46,768 nucleotides of DNA from positions 1 through 46,768 of the forward strand of contig JBBUBW010000044.1 in assembly GCA_038058095.1 (NCBI GenBank), in the 5' to 3' direction. Positions 21,520 to 45,647 of the stretch are shown here, piece after piece. The DNA comes from Patescibacteria group bacterium. Lineage in GTDB: Bacteria; Patescibacteriota; Minisyncoccia; UBA6257; 2-01-FULL-56-20. Position 1 is the first letter of the stretch, and each line of letters begins with the position of its first letter. A model generated the notes under the pieces. It searched no databases. It was not told where the DNA came from and saw only the letters and a program-made list of their open reading frames with translations. The position numbers and the translations under genes are program-made.

Positions 21520-22776
21520 TCACAACTGGAGTAGAAGCAACTTCAATTGCTCAGCAATATTATTTAACTGCAATTGGATTGACTGCAGCGCCGAAGCTGA
21601 ATATGACGCACTGGGATAAGCTTGGTTTAGAACCGGCGCAATAGTTTTGGTTGGATATATCTTAGGCGAAACCGGGGTAGTTGAAGAAGCGGACACATTC
21701 ACTGTCACAGACCTTGAATCAGAGCCTCCGGCACCGTCAAAAACGTTAAATAATATAGTATGGCTGCCAGTAGTAGAAAAAGCATGCGAAGCGTTGGTTG
21801 TTGCTCCACTATTAACGTTCCCATTGCAACCACTTCCCGTCGAACAAGCTCCATCCCAATAAAAATAGTAAGAAAGGTTTGCGCCCTCCGGATCGGTTGC
21901 GTTCGCATACCACGTTCCACTCTGCCCCACTGTTAAACTAGTCGGCCCAGTAAAACTATTTATCACCGGCGGCTGGTTGGTAGCAGCTAATACGGTAACT
22001 AATTTATTAGCAGAAGTTGTTAAACCACCACTATCAGTAGCTCTAAGTGTGATAGTGTAATTCCCCGGTGTTGTATAGGATTGGGGGTAACTCCGTATTT
22101 GTCCACTCGGAACATTAGGATCATAAGTCATAAGAGTCCCGGAAGCGCCCCAACTCACACTGTTAGTAATCAATCCACCCTCCGGATCCGTTACCGCGAC
22201 CTGCCAATAATTTATCGTGTTAATATAAACACTCGTCGGTCCCGTAAAACTATTTATCACTGGAGGCATATTTACTACCGTTACACACCCCGTCGGCTCC
22301 GGTCCACCACTGAAAAGGTAATTAATTTCATCATTCACATCAAACACATCCGTTGCTCCACTCCCATTCACATCTGTCACATAAGTTGAGCTCCCATTGT
22401 TGAAAGCCACATCGATAATTATATTTAGATCAAAAATATTTGGCTGTCCATCCTTATTCACATCACCGCAATGAGCGATAGAAGAGGTAACTACCTTCTC
22501 AAGATAGCTTCCCACCGACCATCCGTCTGGCGGATTATCATAATTTACATTCCACCAAGTATATCCGCTACCACTCACTGGACCGCTAACGATATTTCCC
22601 AAAGCTCCCGCCGGTTGAGTTCCCAAAACCGTCCCGCTTGCGGTGGAAGGAAACGACCGAACATTCAATGTTGCTGTCGTCCACACTCTATCCCCTGCCG
22701 CAAACTGCGCGTGCGCCGCCGAAACCCCAAAAGCAAAAATAGAGATTCCCGCTAATAAAAATATGTATTTTTTCAT
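21520..22776 (-). CDS. Secreted protein: signal peptide, SH3b-like domain, dockerin-like Ca-binding module, two PKD-like domains
   Basis: Signal MKKYIFLLAGISIFAFGVSAAHA; SH3b-like ...YTWWNVNYDNPPDGWSVGSYLE; dockerin-like CGDVNKDGQPNIFDLN...DVNGSGATDVFDVN; PKD-like WGASG.../FYWDG... repeats. Confidence 0.8.
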   Translation of the reverse strand: MKKYIFLLAGISIFAFGVSAAHAQFAAGDRVWTTATLNVRSFPSTASGTVLGTQPAGALGNIVSGPVSGSGYTWWNVNYDNPPDGWSVGSYLEKVVTSSIAHCGDVNKDGQPNIFDLNIIIDVAFNNGSSTYVTDVNGSGATDVFDVNDEINYLFSGGPEPTGCVTVVNMPPVINSFTGPTSVYINTINYWQVAVTDPEGGLITNSVSWGASGTLMTYDPNVPSGQIRSYPQSYTTPGNYTITLRATDSGGLTTSANKLVTVLAATNQPPVINSFTGPTSLTVGQSGTWYANATDPEGANLSYYFYWDGACSTGSGCNGNVNSGATTNASHAFSTTGSHTILFNVFDGAGGSDSRSVTVNVSASSTTPVSPKIYPTKTIAPVLNQAYPSASYSASALQSIQLQLNNIAEQLKLLLLQL

Positions 22777-22955
22777 TATTGTTTAATTTTAACCCTCCTA
22801 GTCCCGCCAAGCGGGATTCTGGAGAATGATTTTTATTGTTTTAAGTATTTATTTTATACGCCACAAACATCCCCGAATTTTCGACCGCCAAACCCAAGGA
22901 ATTTTACAAACCCCCTAAAGACGTTCCTTCTGCACTCCTATTACAAACTTCCCTA

Positions 22956-22983
22956 ATTATACCCCCCCTCAAAAATTGCGTCC
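22956..22983 (-). promoter_or_regulatory. Promoter-like element TTTTTGA-G7-TATAAT upstream of the 418-aa surface protein gene
   Basis: Minus strand reads ACGCAATTTTTGAGGGGGGGTATAAT. The G7 tract (C7 at 22962-22968 on plus) directly abuts the -10 box. Confidence 0.5.
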
Positions 22984-23062
22984 TGTGGAAAACTAAAGGT
23001 GGCTTCCTTCTGGAAGCCACCTTTTCTAAACCCAAAACTCTTCCTGTTTTCTATTTACTATC

Positions 23063-25810: not shown

Positions 25811-25896
25811 ATCTATAATTTATTCTCTAAAACCTTTACCCTCCCAAGTTTTAAAAAGTTCTGAGGGCTCAAAACTTGCGACTTTAACTACTTATT

Positions 25897-25923
25897 ATGA
25901 TACACCCCCCCGTCCATTTGCAA
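25897..25923 (-). promoter_or_regulatory. Promoter-like element TTGCAA-N-G7-TG-TATCAT upstream of the 915-aa gene
   Basis: Minus strand reads TTTGCAAATGGACGGGGGGGTGTATCAT. C7 lies at 25905-25911 on the plus strand. Confidence 0.45.
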
Positions 25924-25942
25924 ACCTGTTGAAAAGTCTAAT

Positions 25943-26947
25943 CTATCGCTTCCTTTTTATAACCTTCCGAACAGCGCGAATAATATCCGGAACGTCCATT
26001 CCGTACTTCTTTATTAATTCGCCGGATGATCCGGATTCACCAAAAACATCTTGCATCCCCACAAATTCCATCGGGGTTGGCACATGTTTCGCCAAAACCT
26101 CCGCCACCGCGCCCCCTAAACCGCCCGAAACCTGATGTTCCTCAACCGTCACCACCGCCCCTGTCTTCCGAGCTAATTCAATGATTTTCTTTTCATCTAA
26201 CGGCTTAATCGTGTGTGAATTTAAAACAATCACCCCAATTTTTTCCTTTTCTAAATCCCGCGCCGCAATTAGCGCATTATATAGAAGCTGACCACACCCG
26301 ATAATTACCACTTGCGCTTTACCTCTACCATTCGTTGTTTCCCAAAGAACTTCCGCCTTTCCGGGAACAAATGGGGTTTTTTCGGTAGTAAAAACATGGG
26401 TTTTTTCTCGGCCAACTCTTAAATAAACCGGTCCCCAAATTTTTGCGGCAGCAAGAGTCGCTTTTTTAGCTTCAATTGAATCGCACGGCGCAAACACTTT
26501 CATATTCGCCATTACTCTCATTGTGGCAATATCCTCGACTGCCTGATGCGTTGCCCCGTCCGGCCCCACCGAAATCCCTGCGTGCGCGCCGACAATTTTC
26601 ACATTTGAGTCGTTATATGAAATAGTCGTCCGGATTTGCTCCCAATTTCTCCCCGGTGAAAAAGTGGCATACGAAGCGATAAATGGAATTTTTCCCGAAA
26701 CCCCCAAACCCGCCGCAATCGTCGCTAAGTTTTGCTCCGCCACTCCCACCTCAAAAAACCGCTCTGGAAATTTATTAGCAAACGGCTCAATTCTTGTTGA
26801 CTCCGAAAGATCCGCCGTGAGCGCCACCACGTTCTTATTGTGCTCTCCTGCGAGTAGTAAACCTTCACCAAAGCCATCTCTCGTAGCCTTCATTTCGATG
26901 TCGCCGGCAAATACTTTATTACTAAGTTTTATTAATGGATTTAACAT
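25943..26947 (-). CDS. Transketolase, C-terminal (pyrimidine-binding) subunit
   Basis: ATRDGFGEGL..., GVAEQN, and a C-terminal transketolase domain. It is the partner of the N-terminal subunit at 27330-28184. Confidence 0.9.
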   Translation of the reverse strand: MLNPLIKLSNKVFAGDIEMKATRDGFGEGLLLAGEHNKNVVALTADLSESTRIEPFANKFPERFFEVGVAEQNLATIAAGLGVSGKIPFIASYATFSPGRNWEQIRTTISYNDSNVKIVGAHAGISVGPDGATHQAVEDIATMRVMANMKVFAPCDSIEAKKATLAAAKIWGPVYLRVGREKTHVFTTEKTPFVPGKAEVLWETTNGRGKAQVVIIGCGQLLYNALIAARDLEKEKIGVIVLNSHTIKPLDEKKIIELARKTGAVVTVEEHQVSGGLGGAVAEVLAKHVPTPMEFVGMQDVFGESGSSGELIKKYGMDVPDIIRAVRKVIKRKR

Positions 26948-26965
26948 AGAATATTAAGAAAAGTT

Positions 26966-27274
26966 TCACCTAAAAAAATCGAGTATATAAGGCAGGTTAA
27001 TTAATATTATCAATAAAGCTATGGACACAACAACTATCCTTGTTTTTTTGCTAATTACTTTTCCTTTATCAAGTTTAGCAAAAAATAAAACTATAAATCC
27101 TAGAAGAATGCCGATAACCATTATAGGAAAGATTAATAACGCTGCTACCCCTTCCGGCCCCGGTTCCATCCAAATCACAAAAGATTGAATTAAACCTACT
27201 AATCCAGTAATTACGTAAACCCAACCTATTATAGAAAGAACAGGCACTTTTTTAGGAAAAAGATTCTTATTCAT
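26966..27274 (-). CDS. Small integral membrane protein (102 aa, ~3 TM helices)
   Basis: Hydrophobic segments VLSIIGWVYVITGLVGLI, LLIFPIMVIGILLGFIVLFF and IVVVSIALLIILI. It sits between the two transketolase halves. Confidence 0.6.
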   Translation of the reverse strand: MNKNLFPKKVPVLSIIGWVYVITGLVGLIQSFVIWMEPGPEGVAALLIFPIMVIGILLGFIVLFFAKLDKGKVISKKTRIVVVSIALLIILINLPYILDFFR

Positions 27275-27329
27275 ATTTTTAAATTTCTATCCGTCATTTT
27301 TATCTTTTAGATTTACACTTTTAATTTTA

Positions 27330-28184
27330 CTATCCTCCATGAATTTTCCGGCCAATCGCCTCTAACTCTTTTAATGCGACTCTTGCTTGTTCAGCATTCG
27401 GCGGTATCCCGTGCCACTTATAATCATTCTCCATAAAACTCACGCCTTTCCCCGGAGTCGTGTGCGCGATAATCACCGTTGGCTTTTCATGAATCACCTG
27501 CGCCTCCAAAACCGCGTCCACGATGTCTTCAAAATAATGGCCGTTAATCTCTATCACGTGCCAGTTAAACGCCTCATATTTTTCCCGGAACGGTTCGAGC
27601 GGCATCACCTCTTCCGTGTCTCCGTCAATCTGGATATTATTCCTATCTACCACGACTATTAAATTATTTAACCTGTGTTTCCCCGCGAACATCACCGCCT
27701 CCCAAGTATTCCCCTCTTGGTGCTCACCATCGGAAGTCAGGCAATAAACCCTGTATTTTTTGCTGTCCAATTTTCCAGCCAAAGCAATCCCAATCGCTTG
27801 AGAAATTCCCGAACCAAGCGGACCCGAAGTCGTCTCAAGCCCTGGTAAAGCCTTACGATGTGGGTGCCCCTGGAGTCGCGACCCCAATTTACGTAAGGTT
27901 TTAAGCTCTTCAAGGGGAAAATATCCGGCCCTTGCTAAAGTGGCATAAAGCACCGGACAAATATGTCCGTTTGATAAAACCAATCTATCTCTATCTGGCC
28001 AGCTCGGCTTTTTGGGATTGTGATTTAAAATATGAAAATAAAAAGCGGTGAAAATATCCGCCATTCCTAAAGGTCCGGCCGAATGCCCGGACTTCGCCTC
28101 TAAAAGCATCTTGATGATATCTTGGCGGATCCGATTCGCCGTTTCTTCAAGAAACTTTATTCTTTTATCAAGTAAACCTTCCAT
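27330..28184 (-). CDS. Transketolase, N-terminal (TPP-binding) subunit
   Basis: SGHSAGPLGMADI, GHP...GSLGSGIS-type and SDGEHQEGNTWEA motifs. Confidence 0.9.
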   Translation of the reverse strand: MEGLLDKRIKFLEETANRIRQDIIKMLLEAKSGHSAGPLGMADIFTAFYFHILNHNPKKPSWPDRDRLVLSNGHICPVLYATLARAGYFPLEELKTLRKLGSRLQGHPHRKALPGLETTSGPLGSGISQAIGIALAGKLDSKKYRVYCLTSDGEHQEGNTWEAVMFAGKHRLNNLIVVVDRNNIQIDGDTEEVMPLEPFREKYEAFNWHVIEINGHYFEDIVDAVLEAQVIHEKPTVIIAHTTPGKGVSFMENDYKWHGIPPNAEQARVALKELEAIGRKIHGG

Positions 28185-28188
28185 ATTA

Positions 28189-28623
28189 TTAAATCTTTCT
28201 TTTTTTAAAGACTTTTAATGTAAAAAATATCAATCCTATCAATACAACAACTATCGCCGCAAGGGCGTAGTAAACTTGATCTTTCCATCCCGCCATTTGA
28301 ACTGGCTTACCAATATTCTCCCCAACATATTTATAACCCAACTTTTCACAAATATCTGCGTCTTTCCAACTATCTTCAATCTTTCTGTTGCCGATAGTAA
28401 TAAAATAACTTCCCGATTCCTCTACTGGGTAATACGCCACCCATCCCAAAGGCAACGAAAATTGCTTGTATTCATCTCCTTGCCAATACCCTCCGCACTC
28501 CCGTGTAGTTTCGTTTACGGCCACTCCCCTCATGGCCGGAGCTCCAAAACTAAACGAGGGTGTAAGAAATAAAAAAACAAATAACAAAGCGAACAAATTA
28601 ACTAATCGAAAATATTTAAACAT
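28189..28623 (-). CDS. Hypothetical membrane/secreted protein (144 aa): N-terminal signal/TM and C-terminal TM
   Basis: The start is trimmed to MFKYFRLVNLF. Its ATG overlaps the rpe stop (ATGTTTAA). Confidence 0.55.
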   Translation of the reverse strand: MFKYFRLVNLFALLFVFLFLTPSFSFGAPAMRGVAVNETTRECGGYWQGDEYKQFSLPLGWVAYYPVEESGSYFITIGNRKIEDSWKDADICEKLGYKYVGENIGKPVQMAGWKDQVYYALAAIVVVLIGLIFFTLKVFKKRKI

Positions 28624-29305
28624 GTAAAAGTTCCAAATATGCTTCCTTTGAGTTTTCACTGTCAAAAATATAACTCGCTGCTGTGAGTATGTCTGCCCCC
28701 GCCTCTTTCGCTAAACGAGCCGTTTCCAAATTCACACCTCCATCCACTTCTATTTTAGCATTTGGGAAATGATGCCGCAAAAATCGCGCCTTCTCCAAAA
28801 CTGTCGGCAAAAATTTTTGCCCCGCCAAACCCGGATTAACCGCCAAAACCTGAAAAGCGGCGAATTCCTCTAAATAAGACTCCGATTCTTTTAGTTTTGT
28901 TTCGGGATTGGTTGCGAGCATCACTTCCGCCCCAAACTTTGAACATTGCTTAAAAATATCTCTTATCACTTCCTCCGGCGCCATTTTTGGATGCCTGAAT
29001 TTTTTATCCAATATCGCCTCGAGATGTACTATCACCCGTTTCACTCCAGCTTCAAGCCATTTGCCCACAACTTTCTCCGGCTCTTCAACCATCAAATGCG
29101 CCTCAATTTTAAAATTAAATTCCGGATGGGCTTTTAAAAGTTTTTTAAGCTCTTCCGGATTGCCCCAAGTTTTGTTGTAAGTGAATTTTGCGTCTGTCAC
29201 GTCAATATGAATCCAATCTCCCTCAATTAAAAACTTGCTAGCCTCAAGAAACTTGTGCGACACACACGCCATCTCTAAACAATTAATCGCCGGAATAATT
29301 CTCAT
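28616..29305 (-). CDS. rpe: Ribulose-phosphate 3-epimerase
   Basis: HIDVTD, LAVNPGLAGQKF and IEVDGGVN motifs. Confidence 0.85.
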   Translation of the reverse strand: MRIIPAINCLEMACVSHKFLEASKFLIEGDWIHIDVTDAKFTYNKTWGNPEELKKLLKAHPEFNFKIEAHLMVEEPEKVVGKWLEAGVKRVIVHLEAILDKKFRHPKMAPEEVIRDIFKQCSKFGAEVMLATNPETKLKESESYLEEFAAFQVLAVNPGLAGQKFLPTVLEKARFLRHHFPNAKIEVDGGVNLETARLAKEAGADILTAASYIFDSENSKEAYLELLHV

Positions 29306-29309
29306 TTGA

Positions 29310-29762
29310 TTAATTTTGTCCTTTTTCTATTTCTGAAATTTTTTCTATCCTCCTCTTATATCGCTCCTCTCCCGAAAATTGAGTCTCTAGAAAAACTTTA
29401 AGCATCGCGCTAGCTTCTTCATCTTTCGTAAAATTCGCGGCGATACTTAAAACATTTACGTCGTCATCCGATCTCGCCGCTTTAACTTGCTCCGGCGAAA
29501 TTCCCAAAACCGACCGCACTCCGGCAAATTTATTCGCCACCACGTCCACCCCCGCTCCCGATCCGCAAATCACCACACCTTTACTATTTAACGGATCAGC
29601 GCTCACTCGAGCCGCAACTTGCGCGGCAAAATCGGGATAGTCATCCCCTTCGTCGTAAACTTTATTGCCTAAATCAACTACTTCAAAATTCTCCTCCAAC
29701 TGCTTCTTCAAAATTTCTTTAAGATTAAACCCTCGATGATCCGCCCCAAAATAAACCTTCAT
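29310..29762 (-). CDS. rpiB: Ribose-5-phosphate isomerase B
   Basis: MKVYFGADHRGF..., VICGSGAGVDVVANK. The start is trimmed to the ATG at 29762. Confidence 0.85.
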   Translation of the reverse strand: MKVYFGADHRGFNLKEILKKQLEENFEVVDLGNKVYDEGDDYPDFAAQVAARVSADPLNSKGVVICGSGAGVDVVANKFAGVRSVLGISPEQVKAARSDDDVNVLSIAANFTKDEEASAMLKVFLETQFSGEERYKRRIEKISEIEKGQN

Positions 29763-29771
29763 ATTAAATAA

Positions 29772-29777
29772 ATTATA
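29772..29777 (-). promoter_or_regulatory. Extended -10 (TGgTATAAT), 9 nt upstream of the rpiB ATG
   Basis: Minus strand reads GTTTGTGGTATAATttatttaatATG. The same GTTTGTGGTATAAT string recurs at 40862-40875. Confidence 0.5.
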
Positions 29778-29783
29778 CCACAA

Positions 29784-29817
29784 ACTAAAATCCCCGGCTT
29801 TAACTAGGGATTTTAGT
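29784..29817 (-). terminator. Hairpin after the 602-aa gene
   Basis: ACTAAAATCCC-12 nt-GGGATTTTAGT followed by TTTG. Confidence 0.5.
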
Positions 29818-29839
29818 TATCGTTTCTTGTTATGGGTTA

Positions 29840-31648
29840 TCAGTTATTAGCCGCTGCTATCACATTCACATTGAAACTATAACCATCAGATCCACCCCTA
29901 CCATCCGAGACAGTCACTGTCACTAGGTAATTACCTGCGCTACTCCAAGTATGCCCAGTATTGAAATTCCAGCAATTCGGATTTGATCCGACAGATGTAT
30001 AACAAGTAACCGCCGGATAAACTACTTCATTGCCGCCCCAGTTCACATTCCAAAATAATCTATCCCCATCCGCATCTGTCGCTGACCAAGAAAAATTCGC
30101 TTGCTGTCCGGCTATAATCTGTGAAGGTCCCGTAGTTACTGTTATCTTCGGCCATGAATTAGTCTGCGTTGTATTCCCCACCGCCACACTCATACTCGTA
30201 TTTGCTGTTTGATTATGATCGTCCGTCACATAGAAAACCGGCGTATAATTTCCCGCTGTGTTATATGAATGCGTAAACGTCGCTGTGTTTTGCACCGACA
30301 TCGTTCTTGGAGCAGTTGCTCCTCCCAAAGCCATCACTGATTCGTCTCCCCAAACCACCGAATAACTCAAACTGCCATTTTCGGGATCATACGCTTTTAC
30401 CGTCCACGTCCCGGTCTCGCCAACTTTCAAATTCGTCGGCCCACTCACGCCAGAAACCACCGGCGGGTTATTTATGACAGTAGTAGAATCAGACCCAATC
30501 GTAAACACCCCGCTCCGTCCGCTAAACCCTCCGCTCATCGCCGAAACCGTAATAATCATCTTGCCTTGATACTGGCTCGCTAAATCCGCCGGAATCGTCC
30601 AAGTGAAATATCCGTTGTTATCGGTTTTTTCTGCAATCACGTACGGTTGAATTTCCGCCATCATGCACCTCGCCGGCCCCTCATAAAGACAGGCGATATA
30701 TTGATGGAGTGTAATCGTAACCGGTCCAATCGCCACAAAATTACTACTCGCCGCTCCGGTAGCCGGAGCCGTTATAGTCGGCCAAATTTGATTCCAAGCA
30801 ATTTTATAAGTCTGCCCCAACTGCCAATTTTCTCCCGCTGAAGGTGAATAGACTCTTATTCCTTGGTTTGGAATTGGAACCGGCGGCGGTGTTGGGCAAG
30901 GATAAATCTGCCCACCGCCAATCATGGTCGGCCCTATCACTCCTTCAATTTTAGTGCGAGTGCTATCATCAAGTTCTCCCGTCGCAGTCAATCCATTTTT
31001 TTCCTGAAACCTAGTAACTGCTTTTTTAGTCAGCTGGCCATAATATCCAGTCACCAAACCCTCCGGATAAACCTGTTTATCCGTTGCTAAATATTGCTGG
31101 ACAACTTTCACATCCTCTCCCGTAGAACCAATTTTCGCGTTCGCCGGAAGAATACATCCATATCCTTCGGCATAAACTTTTTTAGCGATAAATCCGGTAA
31201 AACCGCCCTCAATATTTTGATATTGAAGTTGACCCCAAAGCGTTACCTTCTGCCCTTCGTATTTTTTTAGCTGTGCCAAAACATCATCATTCACCGCTTT
31301 TACTAAATACGATTTCTGGTCGGCATAAAATATCTCGTGGGTCCCCCACATCTGAATCGAAACTGTTCCTCTTGTGTTTTGAGACCGGAGCTCGCCAACC
31401 ACCGTATACCAACCCTGATCCGGTGTGGGCATCGGCATTGGCGTTAGCATTGGAACCGGCTGTGTTTGGTTTCGCAAGGCATCCAGTTTCACCTGCAACT
31501 CCTTGATTAACCCCATCAAATACTCAATCTGCTTCTGAAACGCCTCAAGCGAAACATTGCTCGTCTCGGCTACAACCCGACCCGCTGGTATAACGACCGA
31601 AAAAGCAAAAACACTTAAAAACAAAACTAAAATTATTTTTTTACTCAT
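29840..31648 (-). CDS. Secreted protein (602 aa): coiled coil, peptidoglycan-binding (PG_binding_1-like) domain, PKD-like domains
   Basis: Signal peptide; GSTGEDVKVVQQYLA...GYYGQLTKKAVTRFQEKNGL; PKD-like VVWGDE... and WNVNWGG... repeats. Confidence 0.8.
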   Translation of the reverse strand: MSKKIILVLFLSVFAFSVVIPAGRVVAETSNVSLEAFQKQIEYLMGLIKELQVKLDALRNQTQPVPMLTPMPMPTPDQGWYTVVGELRSQNTRGTVSIQMWGTHEIFYADQKSYLVKAVNDDVLAQLKKYEGQKVTLWGQLQYQNIEGGFTGFIAKKVYAEGYGCILPANAKIGSTGEDVKVVQQYLATDKQVYPEGLVTGYYGQLTKKAVTRFQEKNGLTATGELDDSTRTKIEGVIGPTMIGGGQIYPCPTPPPVPIPNQGIRVYSPSAGENWQLGQTYKIAWNQIWPTITAPATGAASSNFVAIGPVTITLHQYIACLYEGPARCMMAEIQPYVIAEKTDNNGYFTWTIPADLASQYQGKMIITVSAMSGGFSGRSGVFTIGSDSTTVINNPPVVSGVSGPTNLKVGETGTWTVKAYDPENGSLSYSVVWGDESVMALGGATAPRTMSVQNTATFTHSYNTAGNYTPVFYVTDDHNQTANTSMSVAVGNTTQTNSWPKITVTTGPSQIIAGQQANFSWSATDADGDRLFWNVNWGGNEVVYPAVTCYTSVGSNPNCWNFNTGHTWSSAGNYLVTVTVSDGRGGSDGYSFNVNVIAAANN

Positions 31649-31806
31649 ACGATTAGATTTTATTAATGAAGAATGAATTTAGAAAATCAATCGTCCCGAG
31701 GAACTTCGGCGACGAGGGATTACCTTAAGTTCTACCTCAATTAATTTTTATTTGTATTACCTCTCGACTTTTTATATTTGATTTTTGACCTTTAATATAT
31801 AAGTAG

Positions 31807-31833
31807 ATTATACCCCCCCCTCAAAAATTACAA
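31807..31833 (-). promoter_or_regulatory. Promoter-like element TTGTAA-TTTTTGA-G8-TATAAT upstream of the 602-aa gene
   Basis: Minus strand reads CTTGTAATTTTTGAGGGGGGGGTATAAT. C8 lies at 31813-31820 on the plus strand. Confidence 0.5.
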
Positions 31834-31974
31834 GTATTTTCAGCTCGAGTTAGTTTTGCTATCTGCTACGTGCCTTATGTTTTGTGGTATGTGCTATGCG
31901 ATTCGTGTCCTTAGCTAATAATACGCAAAAACAGACAAAACGCTACACGCCAGAGTCCGTCAAGAAACCGCACA

Positions 31975-32005
31975 AATCCAACCCCGCGTAAAGCGGGGTT
32001 GGATT
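31975..32005 (-). terminator. Terminator hairpin of the 969-aa gene
   Basis: 13-bp stem AATCCAACCCCGC / GCGGGGTTGGATT, 33 nt after the stop. Confidence 0.7.
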
Positions 32006-32037
32006 GCACACGTCTTTTATACCAGTAGTAACCAATT

Positions 32038-34947
32038 TTAGAACACTAACCTCACCAAATTGCTATCCTTCACCCATCCATCCGCTCCGGTAGTGTAATT
32101 GACATACCAGTAGGTTCCGTCTCCTCCGGATGATGGTCCATCCGTAATGGTTCCCATCGCTCCGTAGTATTGAGTCCCGGCAATAGAGTTGGGGTTGCTA
32201 GCGCTAGTTCTCACATCTACCGTCTGGGCATTCATCACAGTGTATCCGGTCTTAAGCTCTCTTGATGAGATTAAGAAGACTCCGCTCGGCGCAGTTTGTC
32301 CGGTAGTCCCAGCCGGACTCACATAGATCACTTGCTGCTGACTTAAGGTTGAAAAACTTAACAAGGCTTCAGGAATCGTCCAGTTATACGTTCCTCTATT
32401 TGGTAGATTTCTCACTATGTAACCTCCGCTGGCCAGTTGGATATCTACCGACTGAATTGTAGCCGGAGCGGTCCAACTGATTGTTCTCATCTCACCTACT
32501 CTCCAAATTTCGCCCGCTAAAGGAGCGGTGACGGTGATGCCGCCAATCGTTATTGTTGAAGTTGAGATTGGAGTTGAAGTCGTATTTTGAGGAGGATTAT
32601 TCCCGGGCGCCTGCAGATAATTCGCATCCGTCCAAAGTGTTGGCCGGCTACTTGGGTAATCATAACCAACCTGCCACCAGCAAACATTATTCTGCCGTTG
32701 AGGCCCGTTCCTCACTGTGCCAAGTCTCCCGTTCAACGATAAATCCCCCCCAAGATTCCCGCCGGGCGGATCACTATAACTAAAAGCCATCGCGGGAAAA
32801 GTGGTAGGTGAAACCATCACCCTATCTCCTGGAATAAATTTCGCTTCACAAGATGGCACGGTAACCGGCACATCATTTCCGGGTGTCCCCGCTCCAAATA
32901 AATCTTCTTCTCGCGACCATCCCCGTAAAATCGGCATAGATGGCGGTGTATAAATCACTCGGTACCACCACTTACCTCCGACAAATTCCGCCCACCCCAT
33001 CGTACCTACCGTATTAGCCCACCACCTCCCAACCGCAGGACCGTTCGGGTTCACCCCTTCCCCAATCACCCTTCCTCCCTGCGGCGATAAATAAATCGTG
33101 GTTGTGCTGTTTGGCGTAAATGGGGCACCCAATAAACCGCCATCAAATCTCGGTTTACTCCTATCACTCACAATCCAGTTTCCGACTGACCACCCTTGAA
33201 AACCGCTATCCCAACTCACCTGCCACCAAACAAAATCATTAGTCGCAGTCGGTCCGGATATCAACACTCCCTGATTACCTCCTTTAACAGTTCCAATCGG
33301 GCTTGGGTCCCCGTAAAAAGGATATCCGCTTACTGGCACTGACCCTCTCGCGCTAAGACTACTAGCCACACTATTGGGAATCCACACGCACTCCCCCTCC
33401 ACAAATCTATTTTGAGACGAAAGTTGAGCAGCTGAAAGCGGCGGGCACATTTCTTCAATTTGAGACTCTTTCACCCAACCCACAGTACCACCAGGAAAAG
33501 CAATTCTCACCCACCACTCCCCTCCCCAAAACACGACAGGATTCCCCATGATTTTAAAATTCGGGATAGATTCATCTGAAACCTTGCCGATTGAAAACTT
33601 TAACTTAATACCAAAATCAGTCGGCGGGGCGCTGTTATTGGTCGCCGGGTCCACGCCTCCTAAAAGATTCATCACCGTAACAGTCCCCTTTGTTCTTATT
33701 TTAGTGCCGGGCGCAAAGCGAGTTAGTATCGCCTGGTCTAGAACTCCCACGCTCGTCATCGCCGTCCCCTTAACTCCCGAAGCATTATCTGTTGCCGTAA
33801 ATTTAATACTATATATTCCTCCTGCTTTATATTTATGAGTTGCTATCTTAGTTGAACCATTCGCCGCAGCGTCTGGAACAAAATTCTCTTTCGCCCCGTC
33901 GCCCCAATCTACCGTAAACGTATATGAAACCCCGGCGCTAATAACCAATAAAGACCACTGACCGTCTTGGTCTGGTGATAAAGTAAGCGGTCCGGCTATC
34001 GTTGGCTTGAAAAACGCTTTGCCTCCGATAGTCGCTCCTCCCGGAGGAGGATTTCCGGTAGTCGACGGTGTCACCGTAACCGTTGCCGTAGCGGTACCCA
34101 CCGCCCCCCAAACGTCCTGGCAGCTAAACGTTATTGTATAACTGCCGGCTTGGACATAAAAATGGCTGTCTTCATAATCTTCTACTCCATCTCCCCATTT
34201 TGTTTTATTGCACGAATACGAACCACCCTCCGGATCCATCACGCTCCACGTCCAAAATCCGCCTTCATACGCCTCAAGTGTCGCTGGCCCCGAAGGCGTT
34301 ACAACTGGCGGTTGATTTTGTGTCGGAGAACTAGTTTTTTCTAACCAACTCCCCTCCGCCATAAAAAGCATCACATTAGTCATGCCTGGAAGATTACACG
34401 TCACACCCCACCAATAATAACCATCCGCCATCGTCGGCCCTTTTTTAAGGTTGCACAGCACCCCCGAATTTATCGTTTTATAAACCCCACCCGTAAGGCT
34501 AGGACTAACTCGCAAATTAACAGAAGCTTTCGTTAAAACCCAATCTCCAATCTTATACGCGCTCGGTGCCGCAATCGGTACTTTTTCAAGCGATGCCTCA
34601 TCTGACCATCCCATTAATCCATCTTTCCATTTAACTTGCCACTTACCCGAATGAGGCCAATTTTGAATAATACCCGTATTCCCCGCCACTTCGCTTCCAA
34701 GAACCTTAGCTGACCCACTCCCAAAATTTGAATTATCATACCAAGACCAGACGTCTAATTTTGGAACACTGCTTATCACTCGCACCTCGTCGTAAACGCT
34801 AAATTTATAAGTCACAGCTGAAACTTTATTGCCGATTAAAAATAAAGTTCCTGCCACAACCAAAAACCCGACCGCAAAAACAAGCAAAGCGCTGCCCCGT
34901 TCTAACTTGCGATAGCAATTTGGAGACTGGGCAATTGTTTTTTTCAT
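32038..34947 (-). CDS. Large membrane-anchored surface protein (969 aa) with multiple SH3b-like (W-rich) and PKD-like domains
   Basis: N-terminal TM (ALLVFAVGFLVVAGTLFLIG); repeated ...WW.V....G..GW... SH3b-like units; PKD-like KWGDG and VDWGDG units. Confidence 0.8.
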   Translation of the reverse strand: MKKTIAQSPNCYRKLERGSALLVFAVGFLVVAGTLFLIGNKVSAVTYKFSVYDEVRVISSVPKLDVWSWYDNSNFGSGSAKVLGSEVAGNTGIIQNWPHSGKWQVKWKDGLMGWSDEASLEKVPIAAPSAYKIGDWVLTKASVNLRVSPSLTGGVYKTINSGVLCNLKKGPTMADGYYWWGVTCNLPGMTNVMLFMAEGSWLEKTSSPTQNQPPVVTPSGPATLEAYEGGFWTWSVMDPEGGSYSCNKTKWGDGVEDYEDSHFYVQAGSYTITFSCQDVWGAVGTATATVTVTPSTTGNPPPGGATIGGKAFFKPTIAGPLTLSPDQDGQWSLLVISAGVSYTFTVDWGDGAKENFVPDAAANGSTKIATHKYKAGGIYSIKFTATDNASGVKGTAMTSVGVLDQAILTRFAPGTKIRTKGTVTVMNLLGGVDPATNNSAPPTDFGIKLKFSIGKVSDESIPNFKIMGNPVVFWGGEWWVRIAFPGGTVGWVKESQIEEMCPPLSAAQLSSQNRFVEGECVWIPNSVASSLSARGSVPVSGYPFYGDPSPIGTVKGGNQGVLISGPTATNDFVWWQVSWDSGFQGWSVGNWIVSDRSKPRFDGGLLGAPFTPNSTTTIYLSPQGGRVIGEGVNPNGPAVGRWWANTVGTMGWAEFVGGKWWYRVIYTPPSMPILRGWSREEDLFGAGTPGNDVPVTVPSCEAKFIPGDRVMVSPTTFPAMAFSYSDPPGGNLGGDLSLNGRLGTVRNGPQRQNNVCWWQVGYDYPSSRPTLWTDANYLQAPGNNPPQNTTSTPISTSTITIGGITVTAPLAGEIWRVGEMRTISWTAPATIQSVDIQLASGGYIVRNLPNRGTYNWTIPEALLSFSTLSQQQVIYVSPAGTTGQTAPSGVFLISSRELKTGYTVMNAQTVDVRTSASNPNSIAGTQYYGAMGTITDGPSSGGDGTYWYVNYTTGADGWVKDSNLVRLVF

Positions 34948-39371: not shown

Positions 39372-39893
39372 TCAAAAACTAAGTCTAGTTTCTACTACTC
39401 GGTATATCACAATCCCTGTCGCCACCGAAACATTCAAGGATTCTTTCCTACCTCGCATTGGAATTTCCAAAATCTTATCCGCTTTATCCAAAACCGACTT
39501 CGGTAAACCTTTCGTCTCTTCTCCAAAAACAAGGGCAAGATTTTTATTTTTTGCCGGATGATATTTAAAATACGGAATCGATTTTTTATCTTGCTCCACC
39601 GCCAAGATCTCATAACTGCCGCCAGCCAGCGTCCGTCCGTTGGCGTCCGCCCGCTGGCGGATCAATTTTTTATAAACCGCCCCGAAATTTTTAAAATATT
39701 CCCACGCCATCGTCCTCTCCGCTCCAAGCGCCACTTTTGAAAAATCTGCCCGAAATTTCCCAAATCGGTCTAGTGGTGTCGGCGTCACCCCAACCAGATA
39801 AATCTTTGAGGCGCCAGCGGCATCACAAGTGCGGAAAACCGACCCGACATTATATACGCTCCGAACATTATTTAAAACCACAACGATTTCCAT
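39372..39893 (-). CDS. SpoU/TrmH-family RNA 2'-O-methyltransferase
   Basis: NVGSVFRTCDAAG, LVFGEETKGL and ESLNVSVATGIVIY motifs. The start is trimmed to MEIVVVLNN. Confidence 0.8.
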   Translation of the reverse strand: MEIVVVLNNVRSVYNVGSVFRTCDAAGASKIYLVGVTPTPLDRFGKFRADFSKVALGAERTMAWEYFKNFGAVYKKLIRQRADANGRTLAGGSYEILAVEQDKKSIPYFKYHPAKNKNLALVFGEETKGLPKSVLDKADKILEIPMRGRKESLNVSVATGIVIYRVVETRLSF

Positions 39894-39903
39894 AAAAATA
39901 AAA

Positions 39904-39996: not shown

Positions 39997-40617
39997 TCAA
40001 CTCAAGCTAAATTCCTTAAGCTTTTCTCTTATAGCCTTGTCAGATACCTCGCATCCAAGCATATAATCCAGCGGCTCGCGATAATCAATGCCCTCAAAAT
40101 AGGCAAGCTGTGAACGGAACAACTTCTCATTAAACTCGTTTCCAAAAACTTCAGCCGTCCGGTCAGCAATCTGGCGAAGAGAATGGTAATCGCGTAATAT
40201 AAAAAAGAGGTCAACGTAGTCTTTCCATTTTGCCCGCTGACCAAGCGCGTACGCCTTCATCGCGGAAAGCGTAATCAAATCGGGCATCTTAATAAATTCA
40301 CGGTATTTCTCGGCGTAAGGAATTTCGTGCGGATAGTGAAAGAATGTCCATTTTACGCCGCGCACCAAGAGCGTGTACTGACCTTTTTCATTCCACAACT
40401 CTTTATCGATAGGTGAAAAATCCGCGATCGTTTTCCTAATCCGGATGTTTAAAAAAGGCTTTGTAGAAAAAAGATCAAAATCAATCGAACGCCGGTGGCC
40501 GATATGAAGAGCAACAGCAGTTCCACCTACCAAACTAAATGATCGAGAAAATTTTTTCAGTAATGGAAGCTGACTCCGCTGGACATTAGTTAGTATTTCA
40601 TCGTGCATACTTATCAA
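39997..40617 (-). CDS. AbiEii/DUF1814-like nucleotidyltransferase (putative toxin of an NTase-type TA pair)
   Basis: LVGGTAVALHIGHRRSIDFDLF motif. Confidence 0.65.
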   Translation of the reverse strand: MISMHDEILTNVQRSQLPLLKKFSRSFSLVGGTAVALHIGHRRSIDFDLFSTKPFLNIRIRKTIADFSPIDKELWNEKGQYTLLVRGVKWTFFHYPHEIPYAEKYREFIKMPDLITLSAMKAYALGQRAKWKDYVDLFFILRDYHSLRQIADRTAEVFGNEFNEKLFRSQLAYFEGIDYREPLDYMLGCEVSDKAIREKLKEFSLS

Positions 40618-40855
40618 AGTAAAGCCGAAAATAGTTGCGAATCTGCGGAAAGTAATTTGTTCGATCTCGAAATGCGTGGATGTTAAATATCTTAGCTACT
40701 CTTTTTATACCCATGATTTTAAAGAGCTCTTGCACATCCTCCCAATCACCGTAATTCAAAACTGCTTCCACTAAAGAAACGTCTCCCAGTTTATCGTAGT
40801 CTCTCGTGTACCAAACGAGATGCTTACGCCGAACGAGCTCTTGCGCGGGATTCAT
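40598..40855 (-). CDS. Small partner protein (85 aa) overlapping the NTase gene by 20 nt; putative antitoxin
   Basis: Translationally coupled to the NTase gene. Preceded by GTTTGTGGTATAAT with only 6 nt to the ATG. Confidence 0.5.
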   Translation of the reverse strand: MNPAQELVRRKHLVWYTRDYDKLGDVSLVEAVLNYGDWEDVQELFKIMGIKRVAKIFNIHAFRDRTNYFPQIRNYFRLYFDKYAR

Positions 40856-40975
40856 GCTTTAATTATACCACAAACTCAACCCCTAACCAACTCTCTCGAC
40901 CGAAAAACTAACCTGACGTTACAAGCACTCCTTGCGTTGTGCAAAATCAGAACTATTTCCATAAAGCCACTACAA

Positions 40976-41004
40976 CAAAAAACTCCCAGCCGAAAAGGCG
41001 GGAG
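40976..41004 (-). terminator. Rho-independent terminator immediately 3' of the DGR template repeat
   Basis: Minus strand: CTCCCGCC-ttttc-GGCTGGGAG followed by TTTTTTG. Confidence 0.7.
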
Positions 41005-41013
41005 AAATAAAAA

Positions 41014-41142
41014 GATTTGCGGAAGACGAACTCGTACTCAGGATTCCACTTGTTCGTAGGATTCGCCCAGTTGTCGTTAAGCCACAGACCGCCCTCGTTG
41101 CGTTCCAGCTTGAAGACGTTCGGATTGCCGGAAGAGTCGTTT
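41014..41142 (-). repeat. DGR template repeat (TR), adenine-rich copy
   Basis: Gap-free match to 41540-41668. All 18 mismatches are A in this copy on the minus strand. It is rich in AAC/AAT codons. Confidence 0.85.
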
Positions 41143-41433
41143 CTGTACGCTCGCCCGCCAAAGCCACCGGAGAGCGTGATTCGCGAAAATCTTCTCCCCT
41201 GAATTTTATTCGGTATCTCGCCCAAAACGGAAAAATCCGCTTGAACTTATACCCTAGGCGCGCGCACCAAGTATTTTTATTTTTTAGTTTTCGACACCCC
41301 TTGCTTCACGCCCGGTCTTTAAAATTCCAAGACCGGGAAGAGCAAAGTTTTTCACACGCGAGCCGTAAAACTGGATTCGGTAGCCGGAAGCCGTAACCGC
41401 CAGCGTATTCACCTAGTACCAAAAACATTGTAT

Positions 41434-41471
41434 CAAAAAAACGACGGCCTCGCACTTTTACGTGCGAGGCC
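41434..41471 (-). terminator. GC-rich hairpin plus U-tract after the DGR target gene
   Basis: GGCCTCGCAC-6 nt-GTGCGAGGCC followed by GTCGTTTTTTT on the minus strand. Confidence 0.8.
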
Positions 41472-41499
41472 TTAAAACAAAGTTCCAAGGGTCAAAGAA

Positions 41500-43434
41500 T
41501 CAACTGCCCGTCCTTTGTCGCTCACGCTCCAAAGAACGGGACTTGCGGAAGACGAACTCGTACTCAGGATCCCACTTGAACGCAGGATCCGCCCAGTAGC
41601 CGCCAAGCCACAGACCGCCCTCGCCGCGCTCCAGCTTGAAGACGTACGGATTGCCGGAAGAGCCGCAAATTTGCTTCATACCTATATATATCCACTCATC
41701 CATTGGCTGATCTGTGTATTTGAGACGATAACGCGGTCCGGCTTCAGCCGGGCAAAGTTCAAGGCCCAGCTCGTGAGCTCGTTCGTATGTTTGCTCGGTA
41801 GTTGCGGAATGAGCAAAACCTAAATCCGCTACCGTAAGGCGAACCAACGCCTCTTCTTCGACACTTTTTTGGGTTTCAAATTCTCGGCTCTCGAGCATAT
41901 CTTTGGCATAACTTGATATTTTTATTCCCGCCGCCCTTAACTCATCCATCAGTTCTTCGGCTGTCTTACCTCCAATTTCAACTTTTTCCTGCCGAATTTT
42001 CCTTTCCGGAAATTTAGTGTAAATGTGCTCCAGATTTTCCGGCAACTTATCAAAAATCCCCGGCTCCAGTCTTCCGACATAAGCTTTAGTCTTTTCTTTG
42101 ATATCGTCCGGAGTTCGCGCGATCTCGTCGGGGTCGCACCCAAACACAATCGGCATATCTGCTTCCGGATTACGCCCCGCGCGGAGTTCGGCAATCCTCG
42201 GATCTCTTTGATATCCAAACCCCTCAATCGCGCTATTAATTTCATATAAGAAAATTAAGTCGTCTTTCACAAGCGCTTCGCCCCGCGCCGTCTTTTTTTC
42301 AATCGCCGTCAAAATTTTCATATCGGCGGACTTTTTGCGATAGTTTTCCGCTCCCGGGAGCTCCCTCATCTTCGCTTCGGCGATTTCCGTCATATTTCCT
42401 TCAAGGTTTTGCTGATTATCTTCCACCCCCCTTACTTCGCCTATATTTTCCCCCTGCATCCGGATTGCAATTCTTGGAATAGTCGGCTTGCCTTGCCGGT
42501 CAAGAGTGTAATAAACATAAAAATCTCCGCCGTTAAGTTGGGTCTCGGCAGTGGCAAATCCTTTCGTGCACCAAGCCGTGCCTTTGTTTTGAAGCGAAGC
42601 CCAGAGCGCCGTCGGGTCCGTTCCTTTCTCATACCTCACCCACTTGCCTCTCGTCTCCTCTCGCATCTCCGGCGTAACCTCTCCGGCTTGTCTGATGCCT
42701 TCAACGTATTGTCTAGCGAAAGAAAGTTTGGCGAAGTTCGCCGCCTTTTCTTTGGTAATAAGCTGGTCGAGAGGAGCGCCGGCTTCTCCTTGCGCCGCTC
42801 TTAAACGCTCAAGCATCGCCGGGTCCTTACTGGCTTCGATTATTTGTTCAACATAAGCCAAAGCTCCTCGATCTATATCTGGAAAAAGCCGCGTGCTCCC
42901 CGGCGAACGTTTAGTGAATTCACCTTTATCTTTATCGTAATCGCCAAGCCCAAGCACATTGCGGAAAGCGTAGTAGCGAAACCAAGTCGGATAAGGTTCG
43001 TTTAAGTCGGAAAGGTATGATATCCAGTTATCTAAAGATTTTTCCAAATCTTGGACGGCAATCTCGCCTCTTTGCTCCAGCTCTTCTTCTCCGTAATGCG
43101 CCTCAACGCCCATCTCTCGCGCCGCCCGTTCTTCCACTCTCGCCGCTCCTTCAGCCATCTTGTCTTTATTCGGCCGCACGTATTTCTCCATCACCATCTC
43201 TCGAAGCAACGAAAGGGCGCGCGGGCGTGATTCTACGCCGAACATTTTTCTCTGCTGTTCTTTATTGGGATCAAGTGCCAAACGCTCTAGGCGATCAAGG
43301 TAATTTTGAATCCTCTCTTCTGGATCTTGGGGTATCTTTTCGCCCGTCCGTTTTTCGGTTCTTTTCGCAGCCGATTCTACCTCTTCGGCATTATGGAGGT
43401 CGTATTTCTGTTTCAAAAACTCCGGGTTCTCCAT
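41500..43434 (-). CDS. DGR target (variable) protein, 644 aa, with no signal peptide
   Basis: Long ORF whose last ~55 codons contain the VR (…SSGNPYVFKLERGEGGLWLGGYWADPAFKWDPEYEFVFRKS…). Confidence 0.8.
   Translation of the reverse strand: MENPEFLKQKYDLHNAEEVESAAKRTEKRTGEKIPQDPEERIQNYLDRLERLALDPNKEQQRKMFGVESRPRALSLLREMVMEKYVRPNKDKMAEGAARVEERAAREMGVEAHYGEEELEQRGEIAVQDLEKSLDNWISYLSDLNEPYPTWFRYYAFRNVLGLGDYDKDKGEFTKRSPGSTRLFPDIDRGALAYVEQIIEASKDPAMLERLRAAQGEAGAPLDQLITKEKAANFAKLSFARQYVEGIRQAGEVTPEMREETRGKWVRYEKGTDPTALWASLQNKGTAWCTKGFATAETQLNGGDFYVYYTLDRQGKPTIPRIAIRMQGENIGEVRGVEDNQQNLEGNMTEIAEAKMRELPGAENYRKKSADMKILTAIEKKTARGEALVKDDLIFLYEINSAIEGFGYQRDPRIAELRAGRNPEADMPIVFGCDPDEIARTPDDIKEKTKAYVGRLEPGIFDKLPENLEHIYTKFPERKIRQEKVEIGGKTAEELMDELRAAGIKISSYAKDMLESREFETQKSVEEEALVRLTVADLGFAHSATTEQTYERAHELGLELCPAEAGPRYRLKYTDQPMDEWIYIGMKQICGSSGNPYVFKLERGEGGLWLGGYWADPAFKWDPEYEFVFRKSRSLERERQRTGS
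41540..41668 (-). repeat. DGR variable repeat (VR) at the 3' end of the 644-aa ORF
   Basis: Counterpart of the TR. It carries G (12 sites) or T (6 sites) wherever the TR has a mismatching A. Confidence 0.85.
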
Positions 43435-43773: not shown

Positions 43774-45360
43774 CTATTGCGAATTCTGCGGACTCGGGCT
43801 TTCCGTCACAGCAAACCCGGCCGAAATATCCAAGCTCGTCCTGGAATAACTCTTATCTTTAGGTATTTCCGTCCAAGAGGCCTGATCAATTACACCCCCA
43901 GAGGCGCTATGTATAGTAATTGAGTTATTCGTATAGGCTAAAGTGCTAGATTTCGGCCATTGAACATCAGGAGCTACCGCTCCAGTATACCCCTCAATAT
44001 TCGCCAATAAAAAATATTTCCCCCGCTGAACAATTTTCCCATCTAACCACTTTACCGCAAAGAAATTAGATTCCACCCCATTAGAATTCTTTTTCTTTAT
44101 CGTCCACCCCGTTAAATCCACCGCCTCGCCTCCGGCGTTATAAATCTCGATAAACTCATAATCCGAAGAACTGCTCGACCCCGCCATCACCTCGCTTATT
44201 AAAATTTTCTGCTGGCTTTGATTTTGCGGAGGGGGCGGAGATTCTACCGGCGGAGTTGATATCGCCTGCGACGAGGTAGTCGAGCTCGTTTGAGTACTCG
44301 GCTGATTGGCCGTCCCCCCTCCGTTCGATTCAGAGTCGTCGCTCGAAGTCCCGCTAATTAAAACTAATTCCGAATTTTTTGCTTTAGGCGTCCCACCCAA
44401 AACCGAAGACGTGTGCCAATAAAAATCATTCAAATTTCTCTCCAACGTTTTCTTCTGATCATTTTCTCCGCCGAACCGTCCCCATCCGAAAGAAGCGTTC
44501 ACCTCGTCTACCAAATTGCAATTCGAATCAAAAAGTTTCAACCACTCTCCATTATTGGAAAGCGCTCCGGAATAAATTTTATTGGCGGAAATATTTGGCA
44601 CGGAGTTATCGTCCGTCCGCTCAAGCAATAAAAATTCCCCCGCCGACGAACCACTCGCGGAAATTTTTTCTCCATCTTCAAAAATAATTTTAATCTTCTC
44701 GCTCTGGTTTTTAATTTGCCAGCCCGCCAAACTAATTTCGCCAGAAGAATTATTTTTTATTTCCATCCACTCATCGTTCGAAGAATCTTTTCCTCCCATC
44801 CACGCAATCTCATTAAAAATAATCGCGCGGCTCAATCCGCCAACCGGCGAACCATCTGAAGAAAATGAACAATCTTTAAAAATATTTTCGGAACTTTTAT
44901 TGGCTGATGGCGTGTCCGTGCCTATCGAAACCGCCTTTTGGACCGCAGTTGGCTTTTTATTTTCACTCGCACCTAAATCTTTCTTTAATTCTGAAATTTT
45001 TCCACTCGCACCCGCCGCCGGCGCAACATTCTGCTGTCCAACTCTTCCCGAATCACTTTTCTTATTCAAATTTTGCGCCAAATCTCCAATTCCACCACTT
45101 AAATCACCGCCGCGAGCCAAATTATTTCCATTATTTGCCGTTAAATCCAGTTCGTAAATCGGTTTCGCGCTCTTGAAACCCAAAACATCCTCAAAAGTTT
45201 TATAAACTGCCGCCGAAAAATTTCCTAAAACGGAATTTTCGCCAGAAATTTTTCCGCCAAAAATCAAAACTGTCGCCAAAAAACCAGCCAAACCTAATCC
45301 AACAAAAAACTTCGGCTGTTTCCAAATTTTTTTCTTTTCGAAATTAAATTCCTCGTCCAT
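43774..45360 (-). CDS. Membrane-anchored protein with two lamin-tail domains (LTD)
   Basis: TM FFVGLGLAGFLATVLIF. LTD signatures are IIFNEIAWMG...DEWMEIKN...LAGWQI and ILISEVMAG...EFIEIYN...LTGWTI. The ATG at 45360 is preferred because TTGACA (45408-45413) lies upstream of it. Confidence 0.75.
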   Translation of the reverse strand: MDEEFNFEKKKIWKQPKFFVGLGLAGFLATVLIFGGKISGENSVLGNFSAAVYKTFEDVLGFKSAKPIYELDLTANNGNNLARGGDLSGGIGDLAQNLNKKSDSGRVGQQNVAPAAGASGKISELKKDLGASENKKPTAVQKAVSIGTDTPSANKSSENIFKDCSFSSDGSPVGGLSRAIIFNEIAWMGGKDSSNDEWMEIKNNSSGEISLAGWQIKNQSEKIKIIFEDGEKISASGSSAGEFLLLERTDDNSVPNISANKIYSGALSNNGEWLKLFDSNCNLVDEVNASFGWGRFGGENDQKKTLERNLNDFYWHTSSVLGGTPKAKNSELVLISGTSSDDSESNGGGTANQPSTQTSSTTSSQAISTPPVESPPPPQNQSQQKILISEVMAGSSSSSDYEFIEIYNAGGEAVDLTGWTIKKKNSNGVESNFFAVKWLDGKIVQRGKYFLLANIEGYTGAVAPDVQWPKSSTLAYTNNSITIHSASGGVIDQASWTEIPKDKSYSRTSLDISAGFAVTESPSPQNSQ

Positions 45361-45647
45361 TGGAGAAAAATTAAAAAAATTCCGATTCACCTCCCCTCTC
45401 AAAAACCTGTCAAGGGGAAAACCGGAACCTCGCTTGCCAAAAAGGTCCCCTTATCTCACGCCTTGGCTCGAGCCGAATGAGGTTTTTCATAGGTCCGGCT
45501 CGTCGCGAAAAAAATCTCATACCTATCATAATGATTAATCGAAAAACTATCAAATTGGCCGACTTATCCACAAGACTTTTAAAAAAATCTGGTGGTAAAC
45601 TTACCCGTGGAAAACAAAAACTCGTCGTAGAATAAAAAAATAAATTC

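Follow-up and report, generated by a model that had tools for sequence, protein, structure and literature searches.

A probable stand-alone template-repeat and variable-repeat module of a diversity-generating retroelement in a Patescibacteria genome

Introduction

In the diversity-generating retroelement (DGR) of phage BPP-1 (mtd-avd-TR-brt), avd, the template repeat (TR) and brt adjoin one another, and the functional RNA continues past the 3' end of the TR into a spacer by which complementary DNA (cDNA) synthesis is primed. An RT-10 motif has been described between TR and brt (PMC5737381). DGRs are common in Patescibacteria, where the targets usually carry no recognisable domains (PMC8144416, PMC5758913). 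Here we analysed a DNA stretch of 46,768 nucleotides from a Patescibacteria group bacterium (GenBank assembly GCA_038058095.1, contig JBBUBW010000044.1, positions 1 to 46,768 of the forward strand; "the window" hereafter), in which a TR and a variable repeat (VR) lie side by side with no gene for reverse transcriptase (RT) or Avd at the locus.

The locus resembles the DGRs of Patescibacteria (candidate phyla radiation, CPR), described as "clade 2" by Roux et al. 2021 (PMC8144416) and collected from the CPR by Wu et al. 2018 (PMC5758913) and by Paul et al. 2017, in host group and groundwater habitat, in a target without recognisable domain or membrane signal, in the C-terminal position of the VR and in the adenine-only relation of the repeats; in addition, homologous targets elsewhere precede a TR, Avd and an RVT_1 RT with GNLTSQ...YADD. 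The likeness to "clade 2" comes from the target, the habitat and the TR/VR pair, as the clade assignment itself needs the RT, which is absent at the window locus. Unlike those DGRs, the window and its closest relatives have neither RT nor Avd at the locus, and yet the putative TR-RNA gene and the VR are intact and were recently used. With the BPP-1 DGR the locus shares TR-to-VR transfer with adenine mutagenesis, AAY codons, a block at the 3' end of the VR that resembles the initiation of mutagenic homing (IMH) element, a hairpin downstream of the VR and possibly a C-type-lectin-like variable domain. It differs from BPP-1 in that the TR RNA seems to stop at a terminator hairpin beginning 9 nt past the TR, its conserved structured part being a 5' leader of ~280 nt, and in that a cellular protein is diversified instead of the tail fibre of a phage. 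To our knowledge, BPP-1 provides the only detailed model of a DGR RNA so far, and it looks different from the TR RNA of the window.

DGRs can also act in trans: an avd-TR-brt cassette on a plasmid works in this way, and remote targets are known (PMC5758913). The window is like such systems, which include the remote targets of Treponema, Legionella and Trichodesmium and the incomplete, trans-diversified loci of Thiohalocapsa PB-PSB1 (PMC10907252), in that components would be encoded elsewhere. However, published accounts of remote targets count the TR as belonging to the RT cassette, with the VRs alone being remote, whereas in the window TR and VR stay together and the enzyme genes would be remote. 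This layout is kept in several deeply diverged lineages and is not a recent disruption. We consider it probable that the locus is a functional stand-alone module of TR RNA and VR, served in trans by an unlinked RT-Avd.

Results

The repeat pair differs only at template adenines

The TR (41014-41142, minus strand) is an intergenic sequence of 129 nt with 35 adenines and nine AAY codons in the frame of the VR. The VR (41540-41668, minus strand) occupies codons 589-631 at the 3' end of a 644-codon open reading frame (ORF), the target gene (41500-43434, minus strand), and lies in the C-terminal domain of the 644-aa protein. A preliminary description, made from the letters of the DNA alone, had taken the two segments for an adenine-specific DGR pair. 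Computational re-alignment with mismatches tabulated by TR base reproduced its coordinates, its offset of 526 nt without indels and its 18 mismatches (A to G at 12 sites and A to T at six), all of which fall on a TR adenine and none on the 94 non-A positions of the TR (P-value = 1e-12 for 18 of 18 on the 35 TR adenines, hypergeometric test). The features on which the DGR interpretation was based, namely adenine-only differences, a C-terminal VR, AAY codons and an invariant 3' block, are all present, and the higher local GC content was also found (0.50 at 41-43 kb vs ~0.42-0.45 nearby).

The diversified core covers 41570-41663 in the VR (diversified sites in codons 591-622) and 41044-41137 in the TR, where 26 core adenines in 18 codons would allow ~5e14 protein variants. 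The TR mismatches at 41142-41140 and 41016 are the same in both known VR alleles and are probably repeat boundaries rather than diversified sites. The codon design had been called stop-free; it is nearly but not wholly so, because the two AAG codons of the TR, K600 and K620, can each become TAG by one mutation. Likewise, an identical 3' block of 28 nt with six adenines had been reported, and the block is indeed invariant in both alleles, but it measures 27 nt with five untouched TR adenines (VR 41543-41569, TR 41017-41043, minus strand), because A41044 is altered in the sister allele. Directly after this block there is a fixed G in the VR (41542) against an A in the TR (41016), and relatives show the same fixed difference between TR and VR close to the 3' end. 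By analogy with phage BPP-1, the invariant block and the fixed A/G difference would fit an IMH-like homing boundary.

The variable repeat was recently diversified in the Hainich population

An exact look-up of the target protein of the window gave no match. At 90% identity, the target protein clusters with three other proteins, which differ from the window protein almost exclusively at residues 591-622. Through the cluster members P0121 and P0122, four sister contigs syntenic with the window were reached in Hainich groundwater assemblies (wells H41 and H43). All four carry a second VR allele and are near-identical to the window elsewhere, and the TR is 100% identical across the five contigs. 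Over 15,269 aligned bp, the sister contig L055 and the window show 20 mismatches, 19 of them inside the VR core (41570-41663) and one elsewhere (P-value = 3e-42, Fisher test). The preliminary description had suggested looking for population heterogeneity confined to TR-adenine sites, and this is what the contig comparison revealed: the two alleles differ from each other at 19 sites, all of which are TR adenines, and if the sites at which either allele departs from the TR are pooled with those at which the alleles disagree, the TR base is adenine in 28 of 28. Because genomes that are otherwise near-identical differ in the VR at 19 TR adenines, mutagenic homing must have been recent, with at least one event in the population.

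The layout without RT is shared by diverged lineages

The comparison covered 139 related loci, taken from collections of genomes and metagenomes. An RT homologue lies downstream of the target, a member of a Patescibacteria family of ~640 aa, in 42 of these loci, where it adjoins the TR, which is not the case in the window. The motifs GN[LV]TSQ and Y[AS]DD were confirmed in 13 of the 42, and in the relatives examined Avd (bAvd; PF22296, NF033474) is encoded between TR and RT on the opposite strand. The canonical layout of the family is target (VR), TR, avd (reverse strand) and RT. TR/VR pairs without an RT were found on adequately long contigs in separate lineages (the window lineage, L028, L040, L070 and L132); in L040 only the 3' half of avd is retained.

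In the closest relatives of the window (L001, L140, L141 and L142), the target is 76-79% identical in protein and 71-74% in nucleotides, and the TR lies ~0.35-0.4 kb past the VR, followed by other genes with no avd or RT. The gene order of L142 (TR-DUF6922-AbiEii-SpoU-DUF192) is that of the window, and the order in L141 is ribonucleotide reductase, Lamin-tail-domain protein, target, TR and DUF6922. The TR/VR mismatches are again confined to adenines in L140 (22/22), L141 (18/18) and L001 (15/15), and in these three loci and the window there is no mismatch in the 86-89 non-A positions of each. The TRs of the window, L140, L141 and L001 show 61 non-adenine differences, summed over the six pairwise comparisons, and in all 61 the VR of each lineage carries the base of its own TR. 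Therefore, transfer from TR to VR went on after these lineages split, in a layout without local RT. This speaks strongly against a dead relic and in favour of an RT encoded elsewhere. The TR-RNA region is 72-76% identical among the RT-less relatives, about as conserved as the target gene (71-74%). Judged from these comparisons, the RT-less layout is old and the cassette still pristine.

Search for RT and Avd

RT and Avd were searched for over 62 kb, composed of the window and its sister contigs and reaching from -20 kb to +41.5 kb of the cassette; upstream, an 84-kb sister contig, ~21 kb of which lies outside this view, added 10 kb to give the total of -20 kb. Pfam search detected no RVT_1 or Avd domain in the ORFs over 9.6-45.7 kb of the window, and a six-frame scan of the whole window revealed no RT-type ORF with [YF]xDD. 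With RT and Avd of relatives as tblastn queries, no match was obtained in the window or in the sister contigs to 20 kb upstream (E < 5 or E < 1), and Avd in particular was absent from both at E < 5. A second TR-like or leader-like sequence was detected neither in the window nor in the sister stretch L143 (20 kb upstream). Because RT and Avd are missing nearby, the cassette is not a complete canonical DGR.

An RT-bearing paralogous locus (L002/L098, Hainich H41-bin082_1), from the same well and with similar coverage, was considered as a donor within the same genome and rejected, because its GC content is 0.474 vs 0.438 and its tetranucleotide correlation is r = 0.83 vs 0.96-0.985 for true sister contigs. 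The L002 locus (TR ~12223-12370) has an RT and a paralogous target, yet several of its TR/VR mismatches are at non-adenines, and the pair looks less pristine than the RT-less cassette of the window.

The TR as a putative RNA gene

An extended -10 promoter-like element (TGATACAAT, 41427-41435, minus strand) was read from the sequence upstream of the TR and is a candidate promoter of a TR RNA. At the matching place before the TR, a T-rich tract and a TG-n-TAnAAT-like box are found in essentially all related loci, RT-linked or not, and the leader span between the -10-like box and the TR is 210-290 nt across these loci. In the window, the structured leader (41143-41420, minus strand) is ~280 nt long and has covariation support. 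In an alignment of 36 leader loci (A3; 44 base pairs in six helices), 93.1% of the leader cells were paired, while the value was 40-48% with partners slid by 1-3 columns, and the covariation score was 0.644 vs 0.12-0.18 for the slid controls; these values were matched by none of 500 shuffles. The leader of the window has 30 of these 44 pairs and departs from the alignment mainly in helices 2-3, which are replaced by a lineage-specific hairpin with compensatory changes among the RT-less relatives. In most relatives, the leader contains two hairpins with a common conserved loop, CGG-YYAM-GRY-TT. Rfam search gave no match at E ≤ 1 for 40800-41700 of the window, and L003 and L037 gave tRNAs only. 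On the strength of the alignment, the structured leader is a candidate for a new RNA family tied to this DGR clade.

On the other side, a hairpin of 8 bp with one bulge, followed by a U-tract (40977-41004, minus strand), begins 9 nt past the TR and is the putative terminator of the TR RNA. A hairpin with a T-run is present at the equivalent position in essentially all 39 distinct related TR loci, and its stems co-vary (CCGCGC/GTGCGG, CTCTCC/GGAGAG and CTCCTCC/GGAGGAG). The sole ORF across the TR is the TR itself, in frame. Two mechanically predicted ORFs over the TR (90 aa, 40953-41225, and 65 aa, 40970-41167) were rejected as genes, because the 90-aa ORF is the TR in the frame of the VR and the flanks show covariation of the RNA type with no conserved ORF.

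Where relatives carry an RT, the post-TR hairpin appears to be the end of the TR RNA, with avd converging on it from the other side. If the TR RNA is a separate transcription unit even beside the RT, the RT would act in trans there also, and this could explain how a TR and VR module unlinked from RT-Avd is active.

A GC-rich hairpin after the target ORF had also been noted in the preliminary description, and it was located at 41446-41471 (41436-41471 with its T-run, minus strand; 10-bp stem with eight GC pairs, loop of 6). A role as a BPP-1-like cruciform was considered for this hairpin, which lies ~69 nt past the VR, looks like an ordinary terminator and is probably the terminator of the target ORF; similar hairpins are found in several relatives at variable distances from the VR. 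Between the stop codon of the target and the TR promoter we also observed an array of the short motifs CTTTGA, CTTGG and CTTAG (41476-41497, minus strand). The position of the array is kept in 39 related loci, with 129 occurrences vs 19 expected from shuffles and a spacing of ~10-11 nt by eye.

The target protein

The target has more than 1,490 homologues, the best 120 listed being 63-79% identical and from Patescibacteria/Parcubacteria. Its N-terminal ~440 aa are strongly conserved across the family, and in the C-terminal ~45 residues a fixed scaffold (G594, P596, V598, F599, R603, G607, W609, L610, W614, P617, W621 and F629) alternates with hypervariable positions. Profile searches against Pfam, NCBIfam and PDB gave nothing significant for the protein. 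The N-terminus is hydrophilic, with no obvious signal peptide by reading, and this fits the published remark that such targets lack membrane signals.

The full-length model was of moderate quality, with a predicted local distance difference test score (pLDDT) of 73, and a model of the C-terminal 177 aa (84 sequences) reached pLDDT 92. The best fold matches of the C-terminal model in PDB and viral libraries are C-type lectin domains, all of them weak (E 0.02-0.3, template modelling (TM) score 0.3-0.47), with Mincle (8h4v_B; E 0.019, probability 0.91, TM 0.35-0.42) at the top and lectin-like proteins of poxviruses and herpesviruses among the further weak matches; solved DGR variable proteins were not matched. 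The modelled VR domain may be a C-type lectin-like fold that has diverged strongly, in line with a proposal made for the targets of Patescibacteria (PMC8144416). The variable C-terminal domain marks the target as a probable ligand-recognition protein.

Two target paralogues (P0085 and P0098) were observed in one near-complete genome, on a single contig of 1.08 Mb (L056 and L058). There is no room downstream of either for a TR or RT; these paralogues are remote targets or else family members whose diversification has ceased.

Gene neighbourhood

On the 3' side of the TR lie a DUF6922-like gene (40598-40855), an AbiEii-like gene (39997-40617) and a SpoU methylase gene, and upstream of the target are the genes for a Lamin-tail-domain protein and a ribonucleotide reductase. 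The sister contigs to -20 kb encode RNase T, a nucleotidyl transferase, an ABC transporter, ATP synthase and other housekeeping functions. We found no evidence for the DUF6922-like/AbiEii-like pair as a DGR accessory, and the relative L140 has a different gene there. A relic of the SpoU 5' end (65 nt, 40901-40965, minus strand) and the first part of the real SpoU gene (39832-39896, minus strand) share 71% identity. The relic and the real start flank the DUF6922-like and AbiEii-like genes, which suggests that a cassette of toxin-antitoxin type was inserted at the SpoU 5' end.

Inside the Lamin-tail-domain gene (43774-45402, minus strand), the window and the sister contigs L052-L054 differ far more in the segment 43876-44932 than on either side of it. 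One stretch of 502 nt is only 85% identical with near-identical flanks, and in L055 this segment is the same as in the window. The pattern looks like the outcome of recombination or hypervariability, in what is probably a surface protein. Farther away (21520-34947, minus strand), large genes with PKD, dockerin and peptidoglycan-binding domains (418 to 969 aa) lie amid genes of the pentose-phosphate pathway.

Discussion

If the locus works as we propose, an RNA of ~445 nt would be transcribed from its own promoter (~41427-41435) to the terminator hairpin (40977-41004) and would consist of the leader, the 129-nt TR and the 3' hairpin. A DGR RT and Avd encoded elsewhere would copy the TR into cDNA with misincorporation opposite adenines, and the cDNA would replace the VR at the 3' end of the target gene, the 27-nt IMH-like block setting the 3' limit. 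In this way 18 codons would be re-randomised in a C-terminal domain that may be C-type-lectin-like and probably binds a ligand.

Several points weigh against this interpretation. Neither the RT nor the Avd that the mechanism requires was found within the 62 kb examined, and the RT of the relative L037 retrieves more than 8,000 homologues (E < 1e-30, ~65-84% identical), none of which is tied to the genomes of the window, L141 or L142. Expression of the TR RNA is predicted from sequence features. Only two VR alleles are known, so that "recent" rests on one or a few events. The VR of L142 is partly degenerate, with non-A changes and an indel, so either some RT-less cassettes decay or the L142 assembly is chimeric. 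Finally, the match of the modelled VR domain to the C-type lectin fold is weak (E = 0.02, TM 0.35-0.47).

Among the other explanations, one is that the local TR is passive, the real donor being a second, identical TR beside an RT-Avd elsewhere, so that the target is merely remote, as in Treponema and Trichodesmium. Remote targets are well documented (PMC5758913, PMC8867640) and our view of the genome is confined to 62 kb. However, a redundant TR should decay, while promoter, leader, TR and terminator are about as conserved as a coding gene and show compensatory changes; moreover, two TR copies would need to co-evolve with the VR in every lineage, and neither the window nor the L143 stretch holds a second TR-like or leader-like sequence. 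We therefore regard a passive TR as unlikely.

Slightly harder still to accept is that the chromosome lacks RT and Avd altogether and has kept only the TR RNA and VR, the enzymes being borrowed from a phage, a plasmid or a partner cell. The failure to find them in 62 kb would agree with this, many DGRs are phage-borne (PMC8144416), and the RTs of the clade are abundant (>8,000 matches) and alike (65-84% identity), which would favour cross-compatibility. But pristine cassettes in several species would require a donor that is continuously present over a long time, and the Patescibacteria DGR clade is almost entirely cellular according to Roux et al. (PMC8144416). If it were true, targeted hypermutation would be an outsourced, community-level function.

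The least likely explanation is an inactive relic whose TR/VR pattern and two alleles predate the loss of its RT: no RT or Avd lies within -20/+41.5 kb, over half of the candidate DGRs were discarded as inactive by Wu et al. (PMC5758913) and L142 appears partly decayed, but the RT-less layout is common to lineages 71-74% identical in the target, the two alleles occur in genomes with one other difference in 15 kb, the non-A positions are free of mismatches in four loci, compensatory changes are seen in the leader RNA among the RT-less loci themselves, and the recent turnover of the VR together with the mirroring of all 61 lineage-specific non-A TR changes argues that the cassette is not decayed.

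Two aspects of the proposed module served in trans appear to be new: that TR and VR stay together while RT-Avd is unlinked, across deeply diverged lineages and with direct evidence of recent use, and that a very large DGR clade shares a structured leader RNA ahead of the TR. No description of either was found in the literature searched, and a mention in Paul et al. 2017 is possible. Surveys of DGRs begin at the RT gene and then seek TR and VR nearby, and therefore cassettes without an RT go uncounted.

The target is among the more conserved Patescibacteria proteins of unknown function and is worth study as a probable ligand-recognition protein. The leader RNA and the post-TR hairpin are candidate recognition or priming elements for this very large RT clade. 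If modules of this kind are indeed served by an unlinked RT, one RT may serve several unlinked templates, and DGR hypermutation in Patescibacteria would be wider than the catalogues show.

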